A DNA stretch of 64,000 nt from Calditrichia bacterium (GCA_963777955.1 CAVZSQ010000026.1:26457-90456), one strand, 5' to 3'. Counted from the first letter of the stretch, positions 2,511 to 64,000 are shown. The notes: generated by a model from the sequence alone, not told the origin. Made by a program: numbers and translations.

Positions 2511-3390
2511 ATGCCCCGTAGTATGACTGGTTTTGGTAAAGCTGATTATCATGATAAGAATTATGAGATCAGTGTAGAGGTTAAAAATTTAAATAACCGT
2601 TTCCTTGATATAAACTTAAAACTTCCTAAATCATTGATGAGTTATGAGTCAATGCTCAAGGAAATCGTTAAAAACAAAGTCAGGCGGGGTAAGTTGACCG
2701 CCACAGTTATTTTCAAAGATTTGAGTCTGACCTCCGGGACTTTTGCGCTTAACGAGGAATCCATCCAGTTTTATTACCGCTTATTGCAGGAAATAAAAAC
2801 CCGGACCGGAGTGTACGGGCGAGATTACCCTGGATCATCTGCTGCATTTTAAGGAACTTATTGAACCGGAGGAGCTGTCCAAGGAAGATGATGAAATCGC
2901 CGAACGGCTCGGTAGAGTCATGAGTGAAGCCCTGGATAATCTGAATACAGTCCGCCAGCAGGAAGCAGTAAATTTGCATGAAGATATTTTAACCAGAATC
3001 AGTACCATCGAGCAGACGACCGAGGATGTATTCCGCAAAGGAAAAGAGAATCCCCGGGCGGAATTGGACAGGTTGTCTAACCGTCTGCAGGATTTGATTG
3101 CGGGCAATAAAATAGACCTCAACCGTCTGGAAATGGAAATGGCGCTCATTGCCGATAAAGTGGATATCACCGAAGAGTGTATCCGTCTGAAGAGCCATCT
3201 CGAAATGTTCCGCGATATTTTTTCACACCAGGATGAGGTTGGCAAACAACTGACCTTCGTTTTGCAGGAAATGCAGCGCGAGACCAACACCATCGGCTCA
3301 AAAACCACCGACATCTACATATCCCATCAGATGATAAAAGTAAAAGACGAAATAGAAAAATTACGCGAGCAGATTCAGAATTTAGAATAA
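2511..3390 (+). CDS. yicC: YicC-family stress-induced protein, apparent frameshift near 2797-2823
   Basis: ORF 2511-2852 (MPRSMTGFGKA..., YicC_N) continues in another frame as ITLDHLLHFKELIEPEE...FVLQEMQRETNTIGSK (DUF1732 end) up to the stop at 3390. The second frame opens after a TAA at 2794-2796, next to an A5/C3 run. Confidence 0.85.
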
Positions 3391-3396
3391 GCTGTC

Positions 3397-3960
3397 ATGA
3401 AAAAACACCTTCGGCCGTATATTGTGCTGTCAGCACCTTCAGGCGCAGGGAAAACAACTATCGCCAGGAAACTTGCCGAGCGTAATCCGAACCTGCAAAT
3501 ATCCATATCAGCAACTACCCGTCCTATGAGGCCGATGGAAAAGGATGGAATTGATTATTTTTTTTTAAACGATGATGAATTCAGCAAAAACTTAAAAGAG
3601 GGTAATTTTCTTGAGCATGAGACTGTTCATGGTTTCCGTTACGGTACTCTGCGGACAGTCCTGAATAAAATGACCGGGGAGGGGAAACAGGTACTTTTTG
3701 ACATTGACGTAAAGGGCGCTCTCTCCATCAAACGACTCTGTCCGGAGGCCATTCTTATTTTTATTAAACCCCCTTCACTGGCCGAACTACGGCAACGCCT
3801 GAAAGCACGGCAGACCGAAACTGCCCAGGCCATCAAGCAGCGGCTCAGCCGTCTTAATTATGAATACCAGCAGGCCGATAAGTTTGATCACGTAGTGATC
3901 AATGACGAACTGGACCGGGCGGTCCGGGAGATTGAATCAATTATCAGTGCTAAGAATTAG
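3397..3960 (+). CDS. gmk: guanylate kinase
   Basis: P-loop SAPSGAGKTT, then TTRPMRP.E.DG.DYFF and the GALSIK region. Confidence 0.93.
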   Translation: MKKHLRPYIVLSAPSGAGKTTIARKLAERNPNLQISISATTRPMRPMEKDGIDYFFLNDDEFSKNLKEGNFLEHETVHGFRYGTLRTVLNKMTGEGKQVLFDIDVKGALSIKRLCPEAILIFIKPPSLAELRQRLKARQTETAQAIKQRLSRLNYEYQQADKFDHVVINDELDRAVREIESIISAKN

Positions 3961-5492: not shown

Positions 5493-6059
5493 ATGCATGA
5501 GCACCTGAAAACAAGCCTGCGGGATAGTGTATTCTCGGCTACAGGGCAAAATGTTGCCCGCTGTTATTTATGCGGAAAATGCTCTGCCGGTTGTCCCCTG
5601 ATATCCGAAATGGATTTTACTCCTCATCAGGTTCTACGCCTGCTGCAGCCGGGGCTGGACGATTGGGATAAACTGGCCCTGTCTTCCAAAGCTATCTGGT
5701 TATGCCTGACCTGTGAGACCTGCCATACCCGCTGTCCGCAGGAAGTCGATCTGCCCCGGATCATGGATTTTTTACGCCAGGAATCACGACGTAACAAATT
5801 GGTAAATCCTGCTGCCAAAAAAATTCTCGCTTTTCACCGGACCTTTCTTGATTCAGTAAAATATACCGGGCGTCTGTTCGAAATCGGTTTAATCGGGGGC
5901 TATAAATTGCGATCGTTGAATTTATTTCAGGACATTTCCATTGCGCCAAAAATGTTTTTAAAAGGAAAACTGAAAATCTGGCCGCATCGTGTAAAAAACA
6001 GATCATTGATCTCCCGGATTTTTAAAAAATCCTACGGCAATCAGGAGGAAACGGAATGA
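5493..6059 (+). CDS. hdrC: heterodisulfide reductase subunit C
   Basis: Two 4Fe-4S motifs (CYLCGKCSAGCP, CLTCETCHTRCP). The 4-nt overlap with hdrB suggests coupling. The start is uncertain: the track uses TTG 5406, I prefer ATG 5493, which gives about 189 aa. Confidence 0.85.
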   Translation: MHEHLKTSLRDSVFSATGQNVARCYLCGKCSAGCPLISEMDFTPHQVLRLLQPGLDDWDKLALSSKAIWLCLTCETCHTRCPQEVDLPRIMDFLRQESRRNKLVNPAAKKILAFHRTFLDSVKYTGRLFEIGLIGGYKLRSLNLFQDISIAPKMFLKGKLKIWPHRVKNRSLISRIFKKSYGNQEETE

Positions 6060-6931
6060 AAGTCGGATATTTCCCCGGTTGTTCGTTATTGGGTACTGCC
6101 CGTGAATATGATGAATCCCTGCGCATGATCAGTTCAGCGTTAAAGATCGAATTGGAAGAAATCAGGGATTGGAATTGCTGCGGAGCCACGGCCGCTCATA
6201 GTTTGAATAATATGCTGGCGCTGGCCTTACCGGCACGGATACTGGCCCTGGCCGAGGCACAAGCTGTCACCGAGTTGCTGGTTCCCTGTGCGGCCTGCTA
6301 TCATCGCCTGATGGTTACTCTGCATGAAATCAGGAAGAATCCTGCCTTACTCCCTCGTATTGCAGATACTATCGAGATGCCTTTGACCGGAAATATTAAG
6401 GTTCTGAATATACTGGATTTTCTGGAAAAACATTTTCTGAATCAGGTTGCGACTTTATCTTTTCAACCTTTTGCCCGTAAAGTTGCCTGTTATTACGGAT
6501 GCCTGTTAGTACGGCCGCCGGAAGTTGTAGAATTTGAACGCTATGAAGATCCGCTGGTCATGGAAAATATTGTCCGGAGTGTTGGTGCCGAACCTGTCCA
6601 GTGGGCATATAAAGTGGAATGCTGCGGGGCGGGACTTTCGATTCCCCGTACAGATATCGTTGCGCAGCTGGCCGGTAAAATTGTCGATGATGCCGAGAAA
6701 AGCGGTGCCGCTGCAATTATTGTCGCCTGCCCGATGTGCCAATCCAACCTGGATATGCGCCGCAGCCAGATCGACCGATATCTGAAAAGAAAGAGCCGGC
6801 TTCCCGTTCTATATATTTCACAGGTGATTGGCCTGGCCCTGGGTCTCGACCGCAAGTCCCTGGGACTGCACCGGCACATCGTTCCGATGAACATGCCGCG
6901 TACAGGCAGTACCCGCGGAGGAAAATTAGTT
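6056..6931 (+). CDS. hdrB: heterodisulfide reductase subunit B (no stop codon before the hdrA start)
   Basis: Two CCG-domain signatures (DWNCCGA, KVECCGAG) and CPMCQ.NLD. The frame runs without a stop into the HdrA module. I set the end at the base before the hdrA ATG. Confidence 0.8.
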
Positions 6932-8954
6932 ATGGCCAGAATAGGTGTTTTTGTCTGTCATTGCGGAGAGAATATCGGTGCAACCGTGGATTGTGCACGT
7001 GTAGCCGAACTGGCCGCCCGCATACCGGGCGTTACTTACAGTGTTGATTATAAATACATGTGCTCAGATCCCGGACAGAATATGATCCGTGATGCCATCA
7101 GGGATAAAAAACTGACCGGGGTAGTAGTTGCGGCCTGCTCACCGCGCATGCATGAACCAACTTTCCGGCGGGCCTGTGCCGAGAGCGGATTAAATCCTTT
7201 CATGTGCGAGATGGCCAACCTGCGCGAGCACTGCTCCTGGGTGCATGAGAAAACCGAGGAAACCACCCGCAAAGCACTGGATCTGGTGCGAATACTAGTT
7301 GAAAAAGTAAAACGTAATGCCCCCTTATTTCCGATAAAAGTTCCGGTGACCAAAACGGCACTGGTGCTGGGCGGTGGTATTGCCGGGATACAGGCCAGTC
7401 TGGATATCGCTAATGCCGGTCATAAGGTCATCCTGGTTGAAAAAGATCCCTCCATCGGCGGGCACATGTCGCAACTATCCGAAACCTTTCCTACCCTGGA
7501 CTGTTCGCAGTGTATCCTGACTCCGCGTATGGTGGAGGTAGCGCAACATCCTAATATTACGCTGTATACATATTCAGAATTGGAAAGTGTTGATGGATTC
7601 ATTGGGAATTTTAAAGTGAAGATCCGCAAAAAAGCCCGCAGTCTCGACGAAAAACTGTGTACGGGTTGCGGAATATGCACGCAGAAATGTCCCATCAAAA
7701 AATTACCCAGTGAATTCAATGCCGGTCTGGGTATGCGCACGGCGATCTATGTTCCTTTTCCCCAGGCAGTTCCCAACAAACCAGTTATCGACCGGGACCG
7801 AGTGCACTTTTTACCGCAAAGGATCCTGCAAACTGTGCGCGAAGGTTTGTCCGACCCAGGCGATCCGTTTTGACCAGCAGGATGAGATCATCGAAGCAAA
7901 TGTCGGTGCGATCGTAGCCGCGACAGGATTTGATACGGTAGGTACCGATTTCTTTCCAGAATACGGATATGGCGAATATACCGATGTTATTACGGGATTA
8001 CAATTCGAACGGCTGGCTTCGGCCTCCGGTCCAACCACCGGAGAAATTCGCCGGCCTTCGGATGGTAAGGTGGCAGAAACCGTAGTTTTTATTGCCTGCG
8101 CCGGTTCACGTGATCCGGCCAAAGGGATTGATTACTGTTCAAAGATTTGCTGCATGTACACTGCCAAGCATGCGATGTTGTATAAACATAAAGTCCATCA
8201 CGGCCAGGCTTATGTATTTTACATGGATATCCGGGCGGGTGGAAAAATGTACGAGGAATTTGTTCGCCGGGCTATTGAAGAAGACGGGGTAATGTATGTG
8301 CGCGGGCGGGTATCGCGCATCTACAAAAAAAATGGAAAACTGGTGGTAAAAGGGGTAGATACCTTGCTTAATTCCAAACCAATGGAAATCGAAGCAGACC
8401 TGGTGGTACTGGCCACGGCCATGGTAGCGAACAAGGATGCAGAATCCCTGGCTCAGAAACTGCACATCAGTTATGATCCATATCATTTCTTTGCCGAAGC
8501 ACATCCCAAATTACGCCCGGTTGAAACCAATACCGCCGGTATTTTCCTGGCCGGAGCCTGCCAGGCACCGCGTGATATTCCTGAAACGGTAGCGCAAGCT
8601 TCGGGTGCCGCAGCCAAGACGGCAGCACTGTTTTCACAGGATGAACTTACCCGTGAACCGCTTATTGCCGTGGTCAATCGTACAGCTGCTCCTCTTTTTT
8701 CTTCCTGCGCGGGATGCTTTTTATGCCAGCAGGCTTGCCCATACCAGGCAATTGAAAAAGAGGAAATTAAAACCCGGGATGGCCGCCTGATCAAAACTGT
8801 GGCCAGGATAAATCCTGGTTTGTGTCAGGGTTGCGGCACCTGTGTGGCTGTCTGCCGTTCAAAATCTATAGATTTGCAGGGATATACCCACCGGCAAATT
8901 TATGCGGAAGTTATGTCCTTGTGGAACTGGAGTACTGAAAATGTCAACGTTTGA
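6932..8954 (+). CDS. hdrA: heterodisulfide reductase subunit A (FAD/Fe-S), apparent +1 frameshift near 7790-7800
   Basis: GGAGG sits about 10 nt upstream of the ATG at 6932. HdrA features: GVFVCHCGENIG, the FAD fold VLGGGIAGIQASLDIANAGHKVILVEK, and several CxxCxxCxxxCP motifs. PVIDRD in one frame continues as ECTFYRKGSCKLCAKVCPTQAI in the next, pointing to one extra base near 7799. Confidence 0.88.
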
Positions 8955-12081: not shown

Positions 12082-12660
12082 ATGAAGAGAGCGGTATCTA
12101 AAGATAAAATTGTTTCTTTTGATGACGAAAAACTGATCGCGGTCGATGAGCAGGATAACATCGTTGCTTATAGAACCAGGATCGAATGTCATCAGGGTGA
12201 AGGTATTCTGCACCGGGCTTTTTCGATTTTCATTTTCAATGGTCAACAGGAACTCCTCCTGCAGAAACGCAGCGCTCAGAAACTGCTCTGGCCGGATTTC
12301 TGGTCCAACAGTTGTTGCAGTCATCCCCGTCAGGGTGAGAAAACGGAAATTGCTGCCAGACGCCGGCTGAAAGAAGAATTGGGAATTGAAGCCGGGCTGA
12401 TTTATCTCTATACCTTTCAGTATCATGCCCGCTTTGGGTCCATCGGATCTGAGCGGGAATTATGCGCAGTATATGTTGGTACAAGTGATGAACCTGTCCG
12501 TTTTAATCAGAATGAGATCTCTGTCTGCAAATATCTTGATATTGATTCCCTGACTGCTGATTTAGTGACTAATCCTGATAGATATACACCCTGGTTCCAG
12601 CTGGAATGGCAGCGGTTGATGCGGGAATACAGGGATAAAATAACTGCCATGTTTATCTAA
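12082..12660 (+). CDS. idi: isopentenyl-diphosphate delta-isomerase, type 1 (Nudix)
   Basis: HRAFSIFIFN...LLLQKRS..K..WP..WSNSCCSHP..GE...A..RRL.EELGI matches the Idi type-1 pattern. Confidence 0.85.
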   Translation: MKRAVSKDKIVSFDDEKLIAVDEQDNIVAYRTRIECHQGEGILHRAFSIFIFNGQQELLLQKRSAQKLLWPDFWSNSCCSHPRQGEKTEIAARRRLKEELGIEAGLIYLYTFQYHARFGSIGSERELCAVYVGTSDEPVRFNQNEISVCKYLDIDSLTADLVTNPDRYTPWFQLEWQRLMREYRDKITAMFI

Positions 12661-12809
12661 AATACCGATCTTTTATGTTATTATGGTGCTATATTTAAAG
12701 TGATAGATGAGCAAAATAACCTCAAATAATAGAAATCCCCTTATATTTATAGTAATACTTTAATTATATTAGACAATTATTCTTAGAATTACATTGTGAA
12801 AGTTATTTC

Positions 12810-13880
12810 GTCCCTGGCGGGACTACACGATATTGGTGTGATCGTGTATCTATAGATATATTGTCCCTGACGGGACAATCGCAAATATGCGGAGCCAATT
12901 TTGTTATAATTATTTTGTCTTTGGCGGGACTACCGATATGTGTGTGATCGTGTATCTATAAATATTTTGTCCCTGGCGGGACAATCGCAAATATGCGGAG
13001 TCAATTTTATTATAATTATTTTGTCCCTGACGGGACTACCGATATGTGTGTGATCGTGTATCTATAGATATATTGTCCCTGGCGGGACAATCGCAAATAT
13101 GCGGAGTCAATTTTATTATAATTATTTTGTCCCTGGCGGGACAATCGCAAATATGCGGAGTCAATTTTATTATAATTATTTTGTCCCTGGCGGGACAATC
13201 ACAAATATGCGGATCAAGTTTATCTATAGATATTTTGTCCCTGGCGGGACAATCGCAAATATGCGGAGCCAATTTTATTATAATTATTTATCCCTGACGG
13301 GACTACACATATATGGGTGATCGTGTATCTATAGATATCTTGTCCCTGGCGGGACAATCGCAAATATGCGGAGTCAATTTTATTATAATTATTTTGTCCC
13401 TGACGGGACTACACGATATTGGTGTGATCGTGTATCTATAGATATATTGTCCCTGACGGGACAATCGCATATATGAACTGAGCATTTGTCATAATTATTT
13501 TCTCCCTGGCGGGATGCTGATATATGGGAATCGTGCATCTATAAATATAATGTCCCTGGCGGGACAATCGCAAATATATGCGGAGCCAATTTTGTTATAA
13601 TTATTTTGTCCCTGACGGGACTACACGATATTGTGTGTGATCATATATCTATAAATATATTGTCCCTGGCGGGACAATCGCATATATGCGGAGTCAATTT
13701 TGTTATAATTATTTTGTCCCTGACGGGACTACACATATTGAGTGTGATCGTGTATCTATAGATATCTTGTCCCTGACGGGACATCGCATATATGCGGAGC
13801 CATTGTTATAATATATTGCCCTGGCGGGACTACCGATATTGGGGAACGTGTATCTATAAATATGTTGTCCCTGACGGGAC
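12810..13880. repeat. tandem hairpin-repeat array, block 1: 21 copies of GTCCCTGRCGGGAC with two alternating linker families (about 106-bp dimer unit)
   Basis: Palindrome starts: 12810, 12863, 12917, 12969, 13023, 13075, 13129, 13183, 13237, 13290, 13342, 13396, 13449, 13502, 13552, 13608, 13662, 13716, 13769, 13818, 13867. Linker A is about TACCGATATGTGTGTGATCGTGTATCTATAGATATATT. Linker B is about AATCGCAAATATGCGGAGTCAATTTTATTATAATTATTTT. Confidence 0.95.
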
Positions 13881-14022
13881 AATAATCCGTAATAAATAAT
13901 AGATCTTTAATATTCATCTTATAGATTAAAATGTAGTTCAAGGTACGGATTTATACTATGCAATCACCCATAATATTGTCCCATAAGGATCGAATATTAT
14001 GAAATTGTTAGCACAGCATGTA

Positions 14023-14506
14023 GTCCCTTCAGGGACGACATATCTATAGCAATCGCCCATCCTCACAATCGCTAGTCCCGCCAGGGACGTAATATTTATG
14101 ACAATCGCCAATCATCCCAGAATCTTCAGTCCCGCAGGGACGACATATCTATAGCAATCGCTCATCCCCACAATCGCTAGTCCCGCCAGGGACGTAATAT
14201 TTATGACAATCGCCAATCACCTAGAATCTTCAGTCCCGCAGGGACGACATATCTATAGCAATCGCTCATCCCCACAATTGCCAGTCCCGCCAGGGACGTA
14301 ATATTTATGACAATCGCCAATCACCCAGAATCTTCAGTCCCGCAGGGACGACATATCTATAGCAATCGCCCATCCTCACAATCGCTAGTCCCGCCAGGGA
14401 CGTAATATTTATGACAATCGCCAATCACCCAGAATCTTCAGTCCCGTCAGGGACGACATATCTATAGCAATCGCCCATCCTCACAATCGCTAGTCCCGCC
14501 AGGGAC
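14023..14506. repeat. tandem hairpin-repeat array, block 2: 10 copies of the same stem with inverted loop polarity (GTCCCGCCAGGGAC / GTCCCGCAGGGAC), about 105-bp dimer unit
   Basis: Palindrome starts: 14023, 14075, 14129, 14180, 14233, 14284, 14337, 14388, 14441, 14493. The linkers GTAATATTTATGACAATCGCCAATCACCCAGAATCTTCA and GACATATCTATAGCAATCGCCCATCCTCACAATCGCTA alternate almost perfectly. Confidence 0.95.
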
Positions 14507-14629
14507 GTGATATCCCTGATAATATTAAAAAAATTTGGATAATTAGAATCGGGTCGTTAAAATTTCTTATTCCTGTCCGAAGATGGGTCAGATCCACATC
14601 AGTATTTAAATTTGAAGGGAGAATGAGAC

Positions 14630-16306
14630 ATGCTAAAATCAAAAAAATACGCAATAATAATTCTAACTCTTGCTACACTTTTGAGCGCATGTTTTACTGC
14701 AGATCAACCGCGCACAATTCAGCGCAGCGATGTGATTTCTGCCGAAAATATTATAGGGCTGAATTTTACCGATGCCGAGCGGGATTCTCTGCTGAAAGAT
14801 TTACAGGATAACCGCCGCCAGGCCTATTCTAAGATCCACGAAATAGTGATACCGAACCAGATCCCCCCGGCGCTCACATTTAATCCGATCCCGCTGGGAT
14901 TCCAACCCAAAAATCAGCAGAACATTTTAAAGTTGAGCCCCCCGCAGCAACTGACTGTGCCCGAAAACAGGGAAGAGTTGTGCTTTTATACTGTACGTGA
15001 TCTGGGTGAACTGCTGCGTACCCGCAAGATTACATCGGTTGAATTGACGCACTTATACTTAAACCGCTTAAAAAAATATGATCCGCAATTGCATTGTGTC
15101 ATCTCTCTGACGGAAGAGCTGGCTTTGCAGGAAGCACAGGCTGCCGATCAGGAAATCGCAGCCGGTAATTACCGTGGTCCGTTGCATGGTATCCCCTATG
15201 GCGCTAAAGATCTGCTGGCGGTCAAAAAATATAAAACGACCTGGGGTGCCATGCCTTATAAAGATCAGGTTATCGACCGTGATGCAACTGTTATTAAAAA
15301 ATTACATGCCGCCGGCGCAGTGCTGGTGGCTAAACTTACCCTGGGCGCACTGGCCTGGGGGGACGTGTGGTACGGAGGTAAGACCCGAAATCCCTGGGAT
15401 CCACAGGAAGGTTCCAGTGGATCGTCAGCAGGATCAGCCGCGGCAACTGCGGCCGGACTGGTTCCTTTCGCTATTGGTACCGAAACCTGGGGCTCAATTG
15501 TGTCCCCTTCGACACGCTGTGGTACCAGCGGTCTGCGTCCCACTTACGGGCGGGTCAGCAGAACCGGAGCCATGGCCCTGAGTTGGTCCATGGATAAAAT
15601 CGGTCCCATCTGCCGGTCGGTCGAAGACTGTGCCATAATATTTAATACAATATATGGACCGGATAATGAAGACCAGTCAGTCTATGACTTTCCTTACAGT
15701 TATGATGCCAATCTGGATCCCACCCGATTAAAAGTCGGGTATCTGAAATCTGCTTTTGAGGAAAAATATGACCAGCAGCGATTGGATCAGGAAACTCTGG
15801 ATATAATGCAGCAGAAGTTGAACGTACAGTTAATTCCCATCACACTGCCAGATCTCCCGATTCAGTCCCTGGCCATTATCTTAAATGCCGAGGCCGCTGC
15901 CGCATTTGACGATTTAACCCGTTCCAACCGCGATGATTTAATGGTGCGGCAGGTGCGCGATGCCTGGCCCAACGTTTTCCGTGCTTCACGATTCATCCCG
16001 GCAGTTGAATATATTCAGGCAAACCGTATTCGCTTTATGCTGATCCAGGAGATGCGTAAATTGTTTGAACAGATTGATATCTATATCGCACCTTCCTTTG
16101 CCGAGGATAATCTGCTGCTGACCAATCTTAGCGGACATCCTTGTGTGGTGCTGCCGAATGGTTTTGATCAGAAGGGCAACCCAACCAGTATCAGTATCAT
16201 CGGTAATTTATTTGATGAGGGCAGATTACTGGCTTTTGCCAATGCCTACCAGCAGGCCACCTCATTTCATAAACAATATCCGCCACAATTTAAAGTTTCT
16301 GATTAA
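14630..16306 (+). CDS. amidase-signature family enzyme, predicted lipoprotein
   Basis: Lipobox LLSAC after an N-terminal hydrophobic segment. Amidase signature GSSGSSAGSAAATAAGLVPFAIGTETWGSI..P and a KD(L/N) catalytic Lys region. Confidence 0.85.
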   Translation: MLKSKKYAIIILTLATLLSACFTADQPRTIQRSDVISAENIIGLNFTDAERDSLLKDLQDNRRQAYSKIHEIVIPNQIPPALTFNPIPLGFQPKNQQNILKLSPPQQLTVPENREELCFYTVRDLGELLRTRKITSVELTHLYLNRLKKYDPQLHCVISLTEELALQEAQAADQEIAAGNYRGPLHGIPYGAKDLLAVKKYKTTWGAMPYKDQVIDRDATVIKKLHAAGAVLVAKLTLGALAWGDVWYGGKTRNPWDPQEGSSGSSAGSAAATAAGLVPFAIGTETWGSIVSPSTRCGTSGLRPTYGRVSRTGAMALSWSMDKIGPICRSVEDCAIIFNTIYGPDNEDQSVYDFPYSYDANLDPTRLKVGYLKSAFEEKYDQQRLDQETLDIMQQKLNVQLIPITLPDLPIQSLAIILNAEAAAAFDDLTRSNRDDLMVRQVRDAWPNVFRASRFIPAVEYIQANRIRFMLIQEMRKLFEQIDIYIAPSFAEDNLLLTNLSGHPCVVLPNGFDQKGNPTSISIIGNLFDEGRLLAFANAYQQATSFHKQYPPQFKVSD

Positions 16307-41620: not shown

Positions 41621-43988
41621 ATGAATGAAAAAAATACCCGGGTTACACCAAATGCCCCCGATACCTCTGCCGAACTTAAACGCTATCTGAATATTCTATT
41701 GAAGAATAAATACTGGATTGCCGGCATCACCATTTTTTCGACTATTGCCTGGTTGTTCCTGTACTTCTTGTTTCTGGAACAGGAAAAAACATACGACACC
41801 TCCACCGTTATACGGTTTAGTGATCAGCGGGGCAGAGCCACCACGACGGTCGGTGCCGTCCGTGAATTCGGGAACATGTCAAACGAGAGTAAAGCCGCTG
41901 TACTGCAAAGCAATATTTTTCTGGGCCGGGTAATCGATACGCTGAAATTAAACGTAATAATCGCCACACCCAAAATTCACCGGTTGGAATTATTGAAAAA
42001 AATTGAAGTCACAACGGATGTGGAATTTGGCGTTTATGAATTTATAAAGACAGAAAATAGTATCGAAGTATACTTTACCGACAGAAAAAAGAAAGTTGAA
42101 GATCTATTGGTATATACCGAACGCGATCTCAGTAAAAAAGAATTTGAATTCCAGCGCCCGGGTTTAACTCTGCTAATGACTCAGGATCAGTTCGATCTCA
42201 AACGTAAAATAAAAATTAGCATTGTGCCCAGGACTGTGGCCATTGAAGATCTGAGAAAAGCGATGGTTACACGGATGGATCCATCACAGACTTTACTGCA
42301 GTTGATTTATTCCGACAAGGATCCTGAATTCGGCGCGAAGGTCACCAATACCATGGCTATTCTTTTCCTGGATCAATTGTTATCTTATAACCGCTACCAG
42401 ACAACATCGGTACTGAAATCTATGGAAGAACAGTACACGGTTGCCGCAAAAGAATTGAAGGATTCAGAAGAAGCAGTGCGAATATTCAAAGAAAACAATC
42501 CATCCGTTATTCTGGCCAATGAACAACAAACCCTGGCCAACGATCTGGCCAACCATGAAGTCAGCCTGGTCAACGTCAGTCATACCAGGGAAGATCTGCT
42601 CAATCTGTTGAACAAAAAAAGTCAGATGAGCGGCGATCAGAATATGCGTTTCGTCAATGAAGAGGTTCTGGCTTTTTTAATCGCCCGCAATGTGCCGGGT
42701 GCATCCTCCTATTCCAATCAGTATGAAACGCTATTTTCCGATTTACAGGTATTGCAGGACGGTAATTATTCGGAAGATAATCCACAGCTGATCAACACCA
42801 GAAACCAGATCGCCAACCTGGAACGGAAAATAGACGAATCGGCTCAGGACTATCTGAATTCTCTCGGAAAAAATCGCGATCAGGCCCAGCAGAATCTTTC
42901 CCGGTCGCAGTCGGAACTGCGCCGTATGCCGCAGAAATCAATTGCGTCTGGCCGAACTGGAGCGGGACCGCCGGGTAAAAGATAGCATCCTGTCGAGTAT
43001 TTTATCACGAATTAACGAAGCCCGGGTCAATGATGCAGCCATCATCGCCGATGCTTTTATTATTGATGAAGCACAGCCACCTATCGTCAGCAACAAACTG
43101 ATGGAAAAATTGCCATTCTATGTCGCCGGTCTGTTCATCGGTCTGATCTTTTCTGTGGTCTTATTTATCGGAATGGATTTTTTAGATAGCAGTGTGAAGA
43201 GCATTTCGGATATCGAACAAAAAGTCCATTTTCCTGTTTTAGTGACCATTCCCGTCATCGGCTCCGAAAAAGAAATTCCGGATATGAAAGATCTCAAAAA
43301 GGATTACGATCCGAAACTTATCACTTCAGATTATGCACCGCATATTGCCGGTGAAAAATTCCGTTTATTACGCACCAAATTGGTTTTAGGCGATGGACGG
43401 ATGAAGAAAACTGTCCTGCTTACCAGTTTACAGCCGGGCGAGGGAAAATCTCTGGTGGCGGCCAACCTGGCTGTTACCTGTGCCCAGCAAAAACTGACCA
43501 CACTGCTGATCGATGCCGATTTGCGCAGGGGAGTATTACACCATACATTTAACCTGAAAAAGAAACCGGGTCTGGCCGAGATTCTGGTAAATAAAGCACC
43601 CCTGGCTCTGGAGGACCTGATACTGCGGCTGCAAAATACACATATTCCCAATCTGTCCCTGCTTTCCAGTGGAATGCAAATCCCTAATCCATCCGAATTA
43701 CTGGGTAGTGCCCGGATAAAAGAATTGCTGGGAATTTGTGAACAAAAATTCGATTATATTATAATCGATACTCCTCCGGTCGAATTCATACCCGATGCCA
43801 TAGTGCTGAATTCGCATATTCATAATGTCCTGATGGTTGTCCGCTACGGTAAGACGAACCTTAGCAAACTAAAAGAAAAACTTAATGAATATACAAATTT
43901 TCATAAGGATTTTCAGGGATTGATCATTAATGCTCATCAGGATTTTTCAAAAAAAGACAAATATACCTACTCATATTATCATTACTAA
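41621..43988 (+). CDS. polysaccharide co-polymerase / BY-tyrosine autokinase (Wzc/GumC-like), apparent frameshift near 42930-42945
   Basis: Wzz/chain-length domain with TM1 and a coiled-coil periplasmic region. ...ELRRMPQKS in the first frame continues as LRLAELERDRRVKDS in the next. Then TM2, Walker A GEGKS, LLIDADLRRG, IIIDTPP, and a Tyr-rich tail KYTYSYYHY. Confidence 0.85.
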
Positions 43989-53394: not shown

Positions 53395-54412
53395 GTGCTC
53401 GTGTCTAAAAAAGCGCTTGTGGCCAAAGCAATTTTTAAGTACTTACGGTTTTTTTCCCACTATCTTGAGCAGTTGAAGTCAAATCAGCTCTCCATACTGG
53501 GCTACCACCGTATTTTTGATTATGGCCGGAAAAATTTCCCTTTTTATCGCAGTATTATCAGTGCCAATCCCGAGATGTTCGAACAGCAAATGCGCTTTAT
53601 AAAGAAAAACTTCAATGTGATCAATTTTCAAATCATGCAACAGATGATTGATGCCGGGGAGCAGATACCCAAGGGTACTTTGATCATCACCTTCGACGAC
53701 GGTTATGCCGATAATTATGATATTGTTTTCCCGATCCTGAAAAAATATGACTTAACCGCAACGATATTTACTATGACGTCAGCCATTACCGACGGTGAAC
53801 CGTTCTGGTTTGAACTGATAAAATACTTCTTTGATACCTGTAAGCCCGGATTATATACATTTAAAGATGAAATATTGCGTCTGGATATTACTGACACGAG
53901 TCGTGAAAGTAACCCGTAAAGAGTTTTGGATATATATCCGCGCTATTGAGAATGCCCGGCGTGTAAATATTATCAGAAAAATTAAAAATGATATAAGTAC
54001 ATCGTTATCAGCAGCGGATTTGGAACTAATAAAACCGCTGAACTGGGAACGGATCCGCGAGATGAGCGAGCGGGGGATTGAATTCGGCTCGCATACAATC
54101 AGCCACCCCTATTTGATTAATCTGACCCCGGATGAGTTGATCCATGAATTGACTGTATCTAAAAAGACAATTGAAGAAAATATCAATAAGCCGGTTATTA
54201 GTATTGCTTACCCATTCGGTGCCCATAATGAGCGGGTCGAAGAGCAGGTCAAAAAGTGCGGGTACCGCTTCGGGATTTCTTACAGAAATGATGTGATAAA
54301 AAACTTGAACAATCAGGACATATTTAAACTACCGCGTATTCATGTGGATTATGAATTCGATTATTTCTTTTTTAAAGCAAGATTATTGCTACCCGGACTG
54401 TTTCTGAACTAA
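53395..54412 (+). CDS. polysaccharide deacetylase (NodB domain), apparent frameshift near 53890-53915
   Basis: LIITFDDGYADNY is in the first frame. GIEFGSHTISHP and IAYPFGAHN are in the second frame (ORF 53831-54412). Confidence 0.82.
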
Positions 54413-61362: not shown

Positions 61363-64000
61363 ATGAAAAAGATCTTTCTGCTCTTGTCATTAATCTTCGT
61401 TGCCAATTTGGCTGCTAAAGATGTAACGGGTAATCAGGAAGGTGTCTGGAAATTAACCGATTCCCCTGTACGAATTGTAGGGGATGTAACCATCCAGGCC
61501 GGTGATACTTTAACCATCGAGCCGGGCGTGATTGTCAATTTTAGCGGCGATGTCCCTCCCAACTGGTTGTCCATCTACAGGATAAATATTTACGGAACCC
61601 TGCTGGCCCGGGGTACCTTTGAAGATTCGATTATATTTAAACATGAAACCTCCGGCCGGCGGCACTCTTCCCTGGATATCCTGGATGCAACTACTGTTTC
61701 AGTATTTGAATATTGTCGTATACAGGACGGTGGACATGATAATGTTCAATCCAGAGGCGGGGCAATTTTCGTTCAAAACTCATCTCCACTTATCAAAAAC
61801 TGTACTTTTTATAATAATTATGGATTATGGGGCGGAGCTGTTTATCTGTTATATAGTTCGGCAGCAATAATTGAGTCAAATCTTTTTCTAAACAACCATG
61901 CGAGCAACCTGGGCGGGGCAGTCGGCTGTAATGCCTATGATAGTAGTTACAGTAATACTCCTATGATCAGGAATAATATATTTGTTTCAAACTCCGATAC
62001 AACCTATGGGGGTGGTGCTCTAAGTTTTTATACCCACATCAAGGCGAACGTGATAAATAATGTATTTTATAATAACCATGTTGCCACGGGCAGTGGAGGA
62101 GCAATACTGCTATACGAGCGTTATAATAATGTTAATGTTTCCAACTGTGTATTTTGGGGTAATACTGCCGGCAGCCCGGGCAGTCAAATTTATGTGGCGG
62201 GTACGGATACTTTGAATATCGATTATTCAAATATTGAAGGAGGAGCCACAGGTATCGCCGGAACCGGTTTGATCAATTACGGAAGTCACAATATAAATAA
62301 TGATCCCCTTTTTACCAATCCTGGCGGTAATGATTTTCAGTTTGAGGCCAATTCGCCTTTACTGGATGCGGGTACCAGCACTGCTGCACCGGCGACGGAT
62401 TTTTATGGTAATGCCCGGCCCTTTGACGGCGACCGGGATAATAGCGCAGAGTATGATATCGGTGCCTATGAATACCAGAATACCGCCCCACAGATTACAT
62501 CAACAGCGGTTTTGAATGCAACGGAAGATGTAGCTTACAGTTACCAGGTGGTGGCCAGCGACCCCGATTACGGGGATGATTTGACTTACTCATTACCCAC
62601 GGCACCGGCGTTTCTTACAATTAATCCGTCAACCGGTTTGATCTCCGGAACCCCGGCCAATGAAGATGTCGGTTCTCGACCCGTTATTGTGCGGGTTGTG
62701 GATTTAAACGATGCGCCAGCCACGCAGCCATATACCCTGACGATAACTAATGTCAATGATCCACCAGTGGTCGCTGATATTCCCAACCAAACGATTAATG
62801 AAGGTGCAACATTTACAACGATTAATCTGGACAATTATGTATCGGATGTTGATAATACTGGTGCCCAGATCGATTGGGGATATTCGGGAAATGTCAGTCT
62901 GATCGTAGATATCAATCCGTCTATGCGTAGAGCCACGATTTCCACACCGGACGCTAACTGGTTTGGAAATGAGACCATTACTTTTACGGCCACAGACCCG
63001 GGACTTTTGACCGATAATGATGCGGCCGCTTTTATAGTGAGATCGGTTAATGATGCCCCGGTGGCAGTTAATGATGCAGTAACGACAGATGAAGATACGC
63101 CGGTAGTTATAGATGTTTTAGACAACGATGGTGATGTTGATGGGACACTGATAGTTTCCACCGTAACTCCGACCGATCCACCACATGGTTCAGCCACGGT
63201 CAATCCTTCAACCGGAGTGATCACTTATTCGCCGGATGCTAATTATGGTGGTTCGGATTCATTCACCTACACGGTGCGTGATGACAGCAACGCCGTATCG
63301 AATGTAGCCACGGTAAATGTCACGGTGAACCCGGTCAACGATGCACCGGTAGTGACTGATATACTGAACCAGTCGGTAGCGGAGGGGAGTAGTTTTGCGA
63401 CGATTAATCTGGATGATCATGTGAGCGATGCCGAGACTGCCGACGCCGATATAATCTGGACCTACAGCGGGAATACTGATCTGACCGTGTCGATTGTGAA
63501 CCGGGTAGTTACAATTACTGCACCAAACGGGGAGTGGAACGGGAGTGAGACGATCACCTTCCGGGCTACCGATTTGGCAGGATCGTATGATACGGATGCT
63601 GCGATGTTCACAGTCACAATGTTAAGCGATGCACCGGTGGTTAGCGATATACCGAACCAGTCGATAGCGGAGGGGAGTAGTTTCACGGCAATTACCCTGG
63701 ACAATTATGTAAGCGATGTGGATAACAGTGATGCAGAAATGACCTGGAGTTACAGCGGGAATACGGATCTGACCGTTTCGATTGTTAACAGGGTGGCGAC
63801 GATATCTCCAGCGAACGGGGAATGGAACGGGAGCGAGACGATCACCTTCCGGGCCACAGATCCTGATAACTTATTCGATAGCGATGAAGCAACGTTTACG
63901 GTCACGGCGGTGAACGATGCGCCGGTGCTAACGGATATTCCGAACCAGATCGTGACAGAGGGGGGCGGTTTTGTCACGATCACCCTGGATAACTATGTGA
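61363..64000 (+). CDS. large secreted surface protein: beta-helix region + cadherin/Ig-like domains + 96-aa tandem repeats (3' end beyond the window)
   Basis: It is absent from the ORF track because it has no stop, but I read the frame open from ATG 61363 to the window end. Signal peptide MKKIFLLLSLIFVANLAA, G/N-rich beta-helix repeats, a LTYSL...INPSTGLISGTP cadherin-like module, VNDAVTTDEDTPVVIDVLDNDGDVDG, then repeats of NDAPVV.DIPNQ...EG..F..I.LD.YVSD. Confidence 0.8.
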   Translation, partial: MKKIFLLLSLIFVANLAAKDVTGNQEGVWKLTDSPVRIVGDVTIQAGDTLTIEPGVIVNFSGDVPPNWLSIYRINIYGTLLARGTFEDSIIFKHETSGRRHSSLDILDATTVSVFEYCRIQDGGHDNVQSRGGAIFVQNSSPLIKNCTFYNNYGLWGGAVYLLYSSAAIIESNLFLNNHASNLGGAVGCNAYDSSYSNTPMIRNNIFVSNSDTTYGGGALSFYTHIKANVINNVFYNNHVATGSGGAILLYERYNNVNVSNCVFWGNTAGSPGSQIYVAGTDTLNIDYSNIEGGATGIAGTGLINYGSHNINNDPLFTNPGGNDFQFEANSPLLDAGTSTAAPATDFYGNARPFDGDRDNSAEYDIGAYEYQNTAPQITSTAVLNATEDVAYSYQVVASDPDYGDDLTYSLPTAPAFLTINPSTGLISGTPANEDVGSRPVIVRVVDLNDAPATQPYTLTITNVNDPPVVADIPNQTINEGATFTTINLDNYVSDVDNTGAQIDWGYSGNVSLIVDINPSMRRATISTPDANWFGNETITFTATDPGLLTDNDAAAFIVRSVNDAPVAVNDAVTTDEDTPVVIDVLDNDGDVDGTLIVSTVTPTDPPHGSATVNPSTGVITYSPDANYGGSDSFTYTVRDDSNAVSNVATVNVTVNPVNDAPVVTDILNQSVAEGSSFATINLDDHVSDAETADADIIWTYSGNTDLTVSIVNRVVTITAPNGEWNGSETITFRATDLAGSYDTDAAMFTVTMLSDAPVVSDIPNQSIAEGSSFTAITLDNYVSDVDNSDAEMTWSYSGNTDLTVSIVNRVATISPANGEWNGSETITFRATDPDNLFDSDEATFTVTAVNDAPVLTDIPNQIVTEGGGFVTITLDNYV
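63337..64000 (+). repeat. in-frame 288-bp tandem repeats inside the surface-protein gene
   Basis: Units are 63337-63624, 63625-63912 and 63913 onward, roughly 80% identical by eye at the DNA level. A more diverged copy begins near 62755. Confidence 0.85.

Follow-up and report, generated by a model that had tools for sequence, protein, structure and literature searches.

Repetitive extragenic palindromic (REP) elements, whether arranged in bacterial interspersed mosaic elements (BIMEs) or in REPtrons, are short G+C-rich extragenic hairpins that carry a conserved unpaired motif next to the stem and are recognised in the folded, single-stranded form of the DNA (PMC3733652, PMC8266576). REP/BIME clusters are built by tandem reiteration of a two-unit motif, and in a REPtron inverted copies stand on both sides of a small Y1 HUH gene. 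Described REP families rarely contain head-to-tail dimers (PMC3733652). Here we analyse a 64,000-nucleotide stretch of a Calditrichia bacterium (GCA_963777955.1, CAVZSQ010000026.1:26457-90456; hereafter the window), which contains an array of 31 hairpins arranged in two converging arms within a ~1.7-kb gene-free stretch. Among elements of a known kind the array is unusually large, but it does not represent a new system. It is probably a hyper-amplified REP-like cluster, in which inverted modules seeded by a Y1 enzyme were amplified in place, most likely without a dedicated host function.

The array and its landmarks are as follows.

12794..13880, plus strand: arm 1, 21 head-to-tail REP-like units, each a flank followed by the hairpin GTCCC-TGRC-GGGAC
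13075..13250, plus strand: run of four B-type units in arm 1
13396..13462, plus strand: representative two-hairpin module of 67 bp, inner hairpin, then linker A, then outer hairpin
13881..14022, no strand: AT-rich centre of 141 bp between the converging arms, read from the sequence
14023..14522, minus strand: arm 2, ten units oriented opposite to arm 1, with hairpins within 14023-14506

Across the whole window, GTCCCTGRCGGGAC at up to two mismatches gave 29 matches, compared with 0.40 expected from shuffles (maximum 3). Twenty-one of them lie on the plus strand at 12810-13867, including 17 exact copies and four degenerate ones with one or two mismatches (12917, 13290, 13502 and 13817). The same count had been given for 12810-13880 by an earlier interpretation made from the DNA alone (the sequence-only reading), but that span is too short, as it leaves out the ten hairpins of arm 2 at 14023-14506. 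The 14-mer was described there as a perfect palindrome; it is actually composed of a 5-bp stem and an asymmetric 4-nt loop. Owing to the asymmetric loop and a one-sided flank, every hairpin copy has an orientation. The loop asymmetry and a flank scoring matrix agree that all units of an arm point the same way, and only the linkers alternate. The arms are thus head-to-tail, whereas the REPs of BIMEs alternate in orientation, and the BIME-like alternation suggested earlier is not found.

The period of the arm-1 hairpins ranges from 48 to 56 bp, and the 52-54 bp spacing first reported holds for 16 of the 20 intervals. The linkers are of two types, A and B, in the order ABABABBBBABABABABABA, and A plus B forms a dimer of ~106 bp. 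The alternation recognised before is confirmed. Tandem Repeats Finder reports a period of 106 bp (4.2 copies, 88%) and one of 54 bp (18.4 copies, 70%). Linker A (TACACGATATTGGTGTGATCGTGTATCTATAGATATATT) contains TATCTATA(G/A)ATA and has its own 8-bp hairpin and the palindrome TATCTATAGATA, while linker B (AATCGCAAATATGCGGAGTCAATTTTATTATAATTATTTT) carries a TATAAT ending 6 nt 5' of the next hairpin. In the module at 13396..13462, linker A provides an 8-bp hairpin (TACACGAT...ATCGTGTA) plus the strong family flank TCTATAGATATATT, and the stem of the outer hairpin lengthens to 8 bp (ATTGTCCC/GGGACAAT). A matching module of 64-72 bp is present in other genomes. The 67-bp segment formed by an A-hairpin, the A-linker and a B-hairpin corresponds to the two-hairpin module of the family, and linker B is the junction between modules.

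In arm 2, each hairpin is followed on the plus strand by GTAATATTTATGAC or GACATATCTATAGC. The arm is composed of a 104-bp dimer repeated 4.7 times with 96% identity, and three of its hairpins have 3-nt loops. The centre contains a single degenerate hairpin, GTCCCATAAGGATC, at 13978-13991, with inverted ATAATATT / AATATTAT on its sides. The description of the region as ORF-free is accurate only in the sense that the open reading frames (ORFs) are short mechanical ones of at most 83 aa.

The hairpins of the window belong to a family found in many other genomes. Representative genomes were scanned for two GTCCC-N4-GGGAC hairpins 44-60 bp apart, with the loop unconstrained. Among the matches listed are Bacteroidota, Planctomycetota, Ignavibacteriota, KSB1, Acidobacteriota, Verrucomicrobiota, other groups and four viral contigs, and the loops of these listed matches are nearly always TRRC or its complement. 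Calditrichota is also among the phyla that have the hairpin together with its flank. In other genomes, this conserved flank occupies 16 nt on one side of the hairpin (TTTCTACCnATATnTY; family form TTTCTAYnrATATnTY) and holds CTAC/CTAT (GTAG/ATAG when read on the opposite strand) at a distance of ~10 nt from the stem.

The flank matrix was built solely from hairpins of other phyla and genomes and then applied to the window. For 27 of the 31 units the score exceeds the 99.9th percentile of the background of the window, on the plus strand for arm 1 and on the minus strand for arm 2. Therefore, linkers A and B both end in the family flank. All units are members of the family. The A form of the flank is strong (TCTATARATATnTT), and the B form is degenerate (TTATAATTATTTT). 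The TATAAT of linker B is explained by this degenerate copy of the flank. A promoter box in every dimer was considered and ruled out, given the degenerate family flank and the count of sigma-70 promoters in the array, which are not enriched (13 found, 11.3 expected).

The comparison with E. coli-type REPs reveals several differences. The conserved unpaired tag of REPs, GTAG or CGTC, abuts the stem, whereas here a 16-nt flank carries CTAC/CTAT ~10 nt from the stem and on the opposite side. GTAG had been proposed as a REP-type tag of this array. It abuts eight of the nine A-type hairpins on the minus strand and none of the B-type ones, and its position is not conserved in the family. The GTAG-1 REPs of Thauera sp. 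MZ1T (Di Nocera et al. 2013) resemble the array in having 5-bp stems, in occurring mostly in clusters or arrays and in having been found via a tandem-repeat database; however, they form another sequence family, are proteobacterial and have GTAG abutting the stem. The size of a unit agrees with that of a REP (an extragenic stem-loop of 20-40 bp), as the 14-nt hairpin and 16-nt flank together make ~30 nt, located between a NUDIX and an amidase gene. Judged from these sequence features, the units appear to share with REP, BIME and REPtron hairpins the G+C-rich extragenic stem, the neighbouring unpaired motif and, probably, the recognition as a folded single strand.

Family members take the form of head-to-tail doublets with a ~52-bp spacing, of inverted doublet pairs (- - + + or + + - -) or of short tandem arrays. 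The common free-standing form has four hairpins in the order - - + + or + + - -, spans 160-200 bp and can be folded as a single long hairpin. The REPINs of Pseudomonas are inverted REP doublets, and the window locus likewise consists of two inverted arms. The family differs from REPINs in that each half is a direct doublet with a fixed ~52-bp period; in the window, amplification of the arms has reached 10-fold and 5-fold, and the two have diverged.

A metagenome scan with the A flank and hairpin of the window retrieved 25 contigs, mostly with doublets or four-hairpin elements. In 22 of them a partner hairpin is located 49-57 bp away, nearly always in the same orientation, and three of the 25 carry a Y1 gene. 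The B-type hairpin plus linker pattern gave only three unrelated matches in representative genomes. Dispersed copies were observed on several contigs each of the metagenome-assembled genomes (MAGs) WRGA01 and JAISLW01, and contig Ga0209717_1000006 has two separate hairpin loci. Among ~310 loci examined, the 31-copy array is the longest; the next longest have 8-12 copies, and arm 1 alone is about twice the length of the next longest. Typical REP clusters are also smaller than arms of 21 and 10 copies. Head-to-tail arrays of 8-11 units are found at five loci (L222, L249, L270, L271 and L300), several of which adjoin a Y1 gene.

Related hairpins were also seen in other tandem formats on two metagenomic contigs that carry the family. 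One array has a period of 36 bp (CTCCCTACGGGAC, eight copies; L305 1233-1497) and the other a period of 66 bp (GTCCCTGCGGGAT, four copies; L304 4542-4752). In addition, termite-gut Bacteroidales MAGs (L084 at 3300-3700, L090, L113, L127 and L182) contain the four-hairpin core within a larger element of ~330 bp, which has its own terminal inverted repeats (TTAAATGATTATCGGATGTTGCACCTAyCTAT...). The right end of this element is also present on an IMG/VR viral contig (L205 13500-13600). This organisation suggests a composite or nested miniature element.

The family is tied to a Y1 HUH transposase gene in other genomes, in a REPtron-like manner. This link was observed from both directions. When all ORFs were clustered from ~120 loci retrieved by the hairpin-pair pattern alone, the most widely shared ORF family was a Y1_Tnp protein of ~150 aa, located directly between inverted hairpins at nine loci (Pfam PF01797, E = 1e-28). 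Conversely, among 80 loci retrieved by the Y1 protein alone, 35 have an exact hairpin within 250 bp of the gene (23 upstream, 27 downstream, 15 on both sides), compared with 16 hairpins in 350 kb of remote flanks. The loops are GTYA upstream and TRAC downstream, so the copies around the gene are inverted. Calditrichia are included: at two Calditrichia/Calditrichales loci (L211 and L271) the Y1 gene is embedded in such repeats, and the flank TTTTCTATAGATATAT of L211 agrees with the core of the A-linker flank in the window (TCTATAGATATAT). In genomes of Chitinophagaceae, Flavobacteriales, Planctomycetota and Calditrichales, arrays of 9-11 head-to-tail units directly adjoin a Y1 gene with the subclass 1.2 signature (L222 3927-4366, L249 2459-2951, L270 1811-2568 and L271 2390-2880).

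The sequence-only reading had connected the array with REP hairpins and their REP-associated tyrosine transposases (RAYTs). The connection with a Y1 enzyme is supported by the bracketed genes, but the protein is not a class 2 RAYT. The Y1 proteins score 68-73 bits against NCBIfam NF033573 (IS200/IS605 transposase, cut-off 55) and only 27-33 bits against NF047646 (REP-associated tyrosine transposase, cut-off 80). They fail the RAYT/TnpA_REP class 2 model, and they have Y---Q--HH as Y motif in place of the YxxxNP of class 2. In the alignment (A1; lengths 141-162 aa), residues H55, H57, W95, Q96, Y115, I116, Q119, H122 and H123 are invariant. This signature (DH[IV]H / WQ / Y---Q--HH) and the length agree with subclass 1.2 in Table 1 of PMC6006769, an assignment made by signature alone and not by the profile hidden Markov models or the tree of that study. 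Subclass 1.2 is described there as related to IS200, low in copy number and centred on Bacteroidetes and Cyanobacteria, with ~148 aa, DH[IV]H, WQ, a YIKNQKEHH-type Y motif and a specific C-terminal tail (PMC6006769). The proteins found here share its size of ~150 aa, its motif signature, a conserved C-terminal tail and a Bacteroidetes-centred distribution. By its signature, the enzyme that accompanies the family is of the IS200-class subclass 1.2, in contrast to the class 2 RAYTs of E. coli-type REPs. Moreover, the subclass is listed without REPs in PMC6006769, whereas a hairpin lies within 250 bp of 35 of the 80 genes here.

The IS200/IS605 elements and their derivatives that consist of hairpins only, the palindrome-associated transposable elements (PATEs), are comparable as well, involving a Y1 HUH transposase, subterminal hairpins that are recognised in single-stranded DNA and a recognised motif distant from the hairpin foot. 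Their end hairpins lie on the same strand, whereas those of the Y1-bearing loci are inverted, with one or two hairpins plus flank at each end. The low gene copy number of subclass 1.2 is also unlike IS200/IS605 (PMC6006769). The window itself does not qualify as an IS200/IS605 member, as no such gene lies between or near the arms, and the REPtron arrangement is likewise seen in other genomes only.

The stems of the family covary. Among 109 sites anchored on the flank alone in Y1-retrieved loci, 80 pair perfectly over a 5-bp stem closed by a loop of 3 or 4 nt; for random 14-mers the proportion is 0.44%. The stem changes that are compensatory include ATCCC/GGGAT, GTTCC/GGAAC, GCTCC/GGAGC, ACTCC/GGAGT and ATGCC/GGCAT. 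The single strands of the array fold far better than shuffled sequence (z = -4.5 and -5.3), and the predicted hairpins form. The covariation suggests that the hairpin is recognised as a folded single strand, a mode established for both IS200/IS605 TnpA and TnpA_REP (PMC8266576), and argues against an operator in duplex DNA. A separate observation concerns unit 14, a diverged A-type unit at 13502-13551. In its inner linker hairpin, TAC...GTA has become TGC...GCA, so that both arms are altered and pairing is kept; this compensatory change may be due to selection for the fold or to template switching from one arm to the other.

These results bear on the idea that the array is a centromere-like or nucleoid-anchoring site for a dimeric protein that binds double-stranded DNA and is phased every five helical turns. 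The palindromic core does recur every ~53 bp, which is about five helical turns, and this phasing had been pointed out before. It is, however, a constant of the two-hairpin module of the family across phyla rather than a property of the locus, and the spacing recurs in isolated doublets scattered through other genomes. The stem covariation keeps the fold and not the sequence, the opposite of what a duplex operator would show. No par genes adjoin the array; the sole ParA-like P-loop protein (42942-43988) is encoded 29 kb away in a polysaccharide cluster. The features of a partition centromere (parS or parC-type iterons) are thus lacking, with no adjoining par genes, covarying stems and no plasmid match (blastn of the array against PLSDB). 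Such a binding site is highly improbable.

The regular layout also has a formal likeness to a repeat-spacer array. A transcribed array processed into small structured or guide-like RNAs would have a ~30-nt conserved 'repeat' of flank plus hairpin, the hairpin being 3'-terminal, and a ~22-nt 'spacer'. In support of it, the variable segments differ between loci and at times within one array (L205 and L300). In the window, the 'spacers' are just two alternating repeated sequences, no cas or other nuclease gene is present, and sigma-70 promoters are not enriched. The occurrence in both orientations and the inverted pairs around a transposase gene fit mobility at the DNA level. We therefore regard an RNA array as very improbable. 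Rfam gave no meaningful match at the gathering threshold for the whole window and 12 related loci; at E <= 10 on 12.6-14.7 kb, the best scores were 18-20 bits, far below threshold, including Acido-Lenti-1 (18 bits) and CRISPR-DR37 (18.7 bits, threshold 40). Hence neither the centromere nor the battery of small RNAs raised by the sequence-only reading finds support, since no par, cas, Rfam or plasmid match was obtained. A Cas12a-like repeat-spacer array (30 nt conserved plus 22 nt variable) had also been considered as a candidate and was dropped on the Y1 association and the inverted arrangements. CRISPR arrays share with the locus the regularly spaced, partially palindromic repeats in a non-coding stretch. 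They differ in having unique spacers; here there are two repeated linker types, no cas genes, no leader, and arms that converge, in line with the earlier statement that the array is not CRISPR.

The copies within arm 1 record its amplification. Both features described previously, four consecutive B-type units (13075-13250) and an A/B hybrid linker (13197-13236), are confirmed. The B-type units at 12969, 13075, 13129 and 13342 show 100% mutual identity, the hybrid linker is an A/B chimera, and units 1 and 12 share 98% identity. Mean identities among units of the same type are 85% (A) and 90% (B). The identical B units, the chimera and the likeness of units 1 and 12 are apparent signs of unequal recombination or gene conversion, and the unequal recombination read earlier from this interruption is borne out by the comparison.

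Tandem repeats are error-prone in assembly, and the array might be a false expansion or mis-joining of a short repeat. The dimers of arm 2 are 96% identical, so the copy number of this arm is the least certain. Nevertheless, the longest exact internal repeat is 85 bp, and units of one type are only 85-90% identical; the array is therefore resolvable. It also has many private substitutions and indels per unit and is flanked by normal single-copy genes on a 64-kb contig. An assembly artefact is accordingly extremely improbable.

The reading that we prefer, a REP-like cluster amplified in place, would proceed in the following steps. A Y1 enzyme, encoded elsewhere in the host genome or since lost, would recognise the folded hairpin with its flank on single-stranded DNA. 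In this way a single inverted module pair would have been seeded in the interval that separates the NUDIX from the amidase gene. The modules of 106 bp (arm 1) and 104 bp (arm 2) would then have been amplified in situ through unequal recombination, replication slippage and gene conversion, which would give the 21 and 10 copies converging on the 141-bp centre. Such an array would most likely have no dedicated host function, and its effects on neighbouring genes would be incidental.

Several points weigh against this scenario. No Y1 gene was found in the 64-kb window, where tblastn with six Y1 proteins gave a best E of 0.37. No further hairpin copy was found in the other 62 kb of the window, where the density of a REP-rich genome would predict several. 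Therefore, dispersal and a cognate enzyme are unproven for the host genome. Subclass 1.2 has been reported without REPs and generally without IS200-type terminal structures (PMC6006769), and the role proposed here for its Y1 enzymes comes from sequence comparison. In addition, selection for a function could account for the regularity of the period and for the strictly head-to-tail order.

A further-reaching version, which we consider rather unlikely, extends the role of the enzyme. The subclass 1.2 proteins would be the enzymes of a cross-phylum REP-like system whose mobile unit is the ~52-bp head-to-tail doublet, and arrays would grow also by serial Y1-catalysed insertion beside an existing copy, with CTAY...ATAT of the flank serving as both cleavage site and target. 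If such self-targeted insertion were true, the locus would record repeated single-strand transposition onto itself.

The array is located between two genes that lie outside the element.

12082..12660, plus strand: NUDIX hydrolase gene, upstream neighbour
14630..16306, plus strand: amidase gene, downstream neighbour

The array is preceded by genes for ribulose-phosphate epimerase, guanylate kinase and CoaBC, a heterodisulfide-reductase/hydrogenase-like cluster and the NUDIX hydrolase, and it is followed by amidase, SelB, SelA, Tgt, Fmt and a long polysaccharide-synthesis cluster. The window represents ordinary chromosomal DNA. It contains no cas, par or transposase genes (the cas-domain scan covered 50 window ORFs), and a tRNA/tmRNA scan of it found none. 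The amidase shares 86% amino-acid identity with its ortholog in an uncultured Calditrichota MAG (L004), and the next matches are largely from Calditrichota, which places the host in this phylum. In L004, the upstream gene is different and the amidase is preceded by one degenerate hairpin and no array; when the two amidase upstream regions are aligned, their non-coding part does not align. An exact look-up of the NUDIX and amidase proteins in public assemblies had neither on record.

This context is relevant to the possibility that the array, although REP-like in origin, is now retained as an exapted cis-acting element. It might serve as an insulator or attenuator between NUDIX and amidase, as a stabiliser of mRNA 3' ends, or as a platform for nucleoid proteins or gyrase. 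Cis-acting roles have been discussed for REP/BIME elements, including the BIMEs of E. coli (PMC3733652). The position between two co-directional genes, the regular period, the folding relative to shuffled sequence (z = -4.5 and -5.3) and an enrichment of weak terminator-like matches (13 versus 2.5 expected) all favour such a role. The hairpins, however, have no real T-tracts, the copies are diverging (85-90% identity), and the array is not conserved in L004, where a different upstream gene and one hairpin are found. An exapted element is hence improbable, and we retain the REP-like cluster, most likely without dedicated function, as the best explanation of the locus.

Other features of the window were noted in passing. 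Two overlapping plus-strand ORFs (53395-53919 and 53831-54412) match positions 5-46 and 47-123 of one Pfam polysaccharide deacetylase domain profile and look like the two parts of a single gene broken by a frameshift, which would reflect a pseudogene or an error in sequencing. The open frame at 61501-64000 continues past the window end and encodes a large secreted protein with repeated units of ~96 aa ('VNDAPV...DIPNQ...'); a 288-bp DNA tandem repeat at 63332-63948 (2.1 copies, 75%) equals two protein repeats of this ~96-aa type. In the heterodisulfide-reductase-like cluster, two long plus-strand ORFs (6056-7873 and 7710-8954) overlap by ~160 bp in different frames, which could be a genuine overlap, a frameshift or a site of recoding, and selA and selB are located 8-10 kb downstream of them.

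The array is best explained as amplified selfish DNA and not as a new RNA-guided or chromosome-organising system. Our analysis connects the 'orphan' Y1 subclass 1.2 with a hairpin family that is absent from Rfam and from the open-access papers searched; no description of the family or of its link to the subclass was found in the open-access literature, nor were the hairpin sequences found as text. Known REPs, including the classical ones, are lineage-specific, whereas here a near-identical element of hairpin and flank is common to many phyla, both within the FCB and PVC groups and outside them. The head-to-tail doublet architecture is largely missing from classical REP families. Arrays of this kind break short-read assemblies, and when metagenomes are mined they can be taken for CRISPR-like loci; annotation therefore profits from having the family described.

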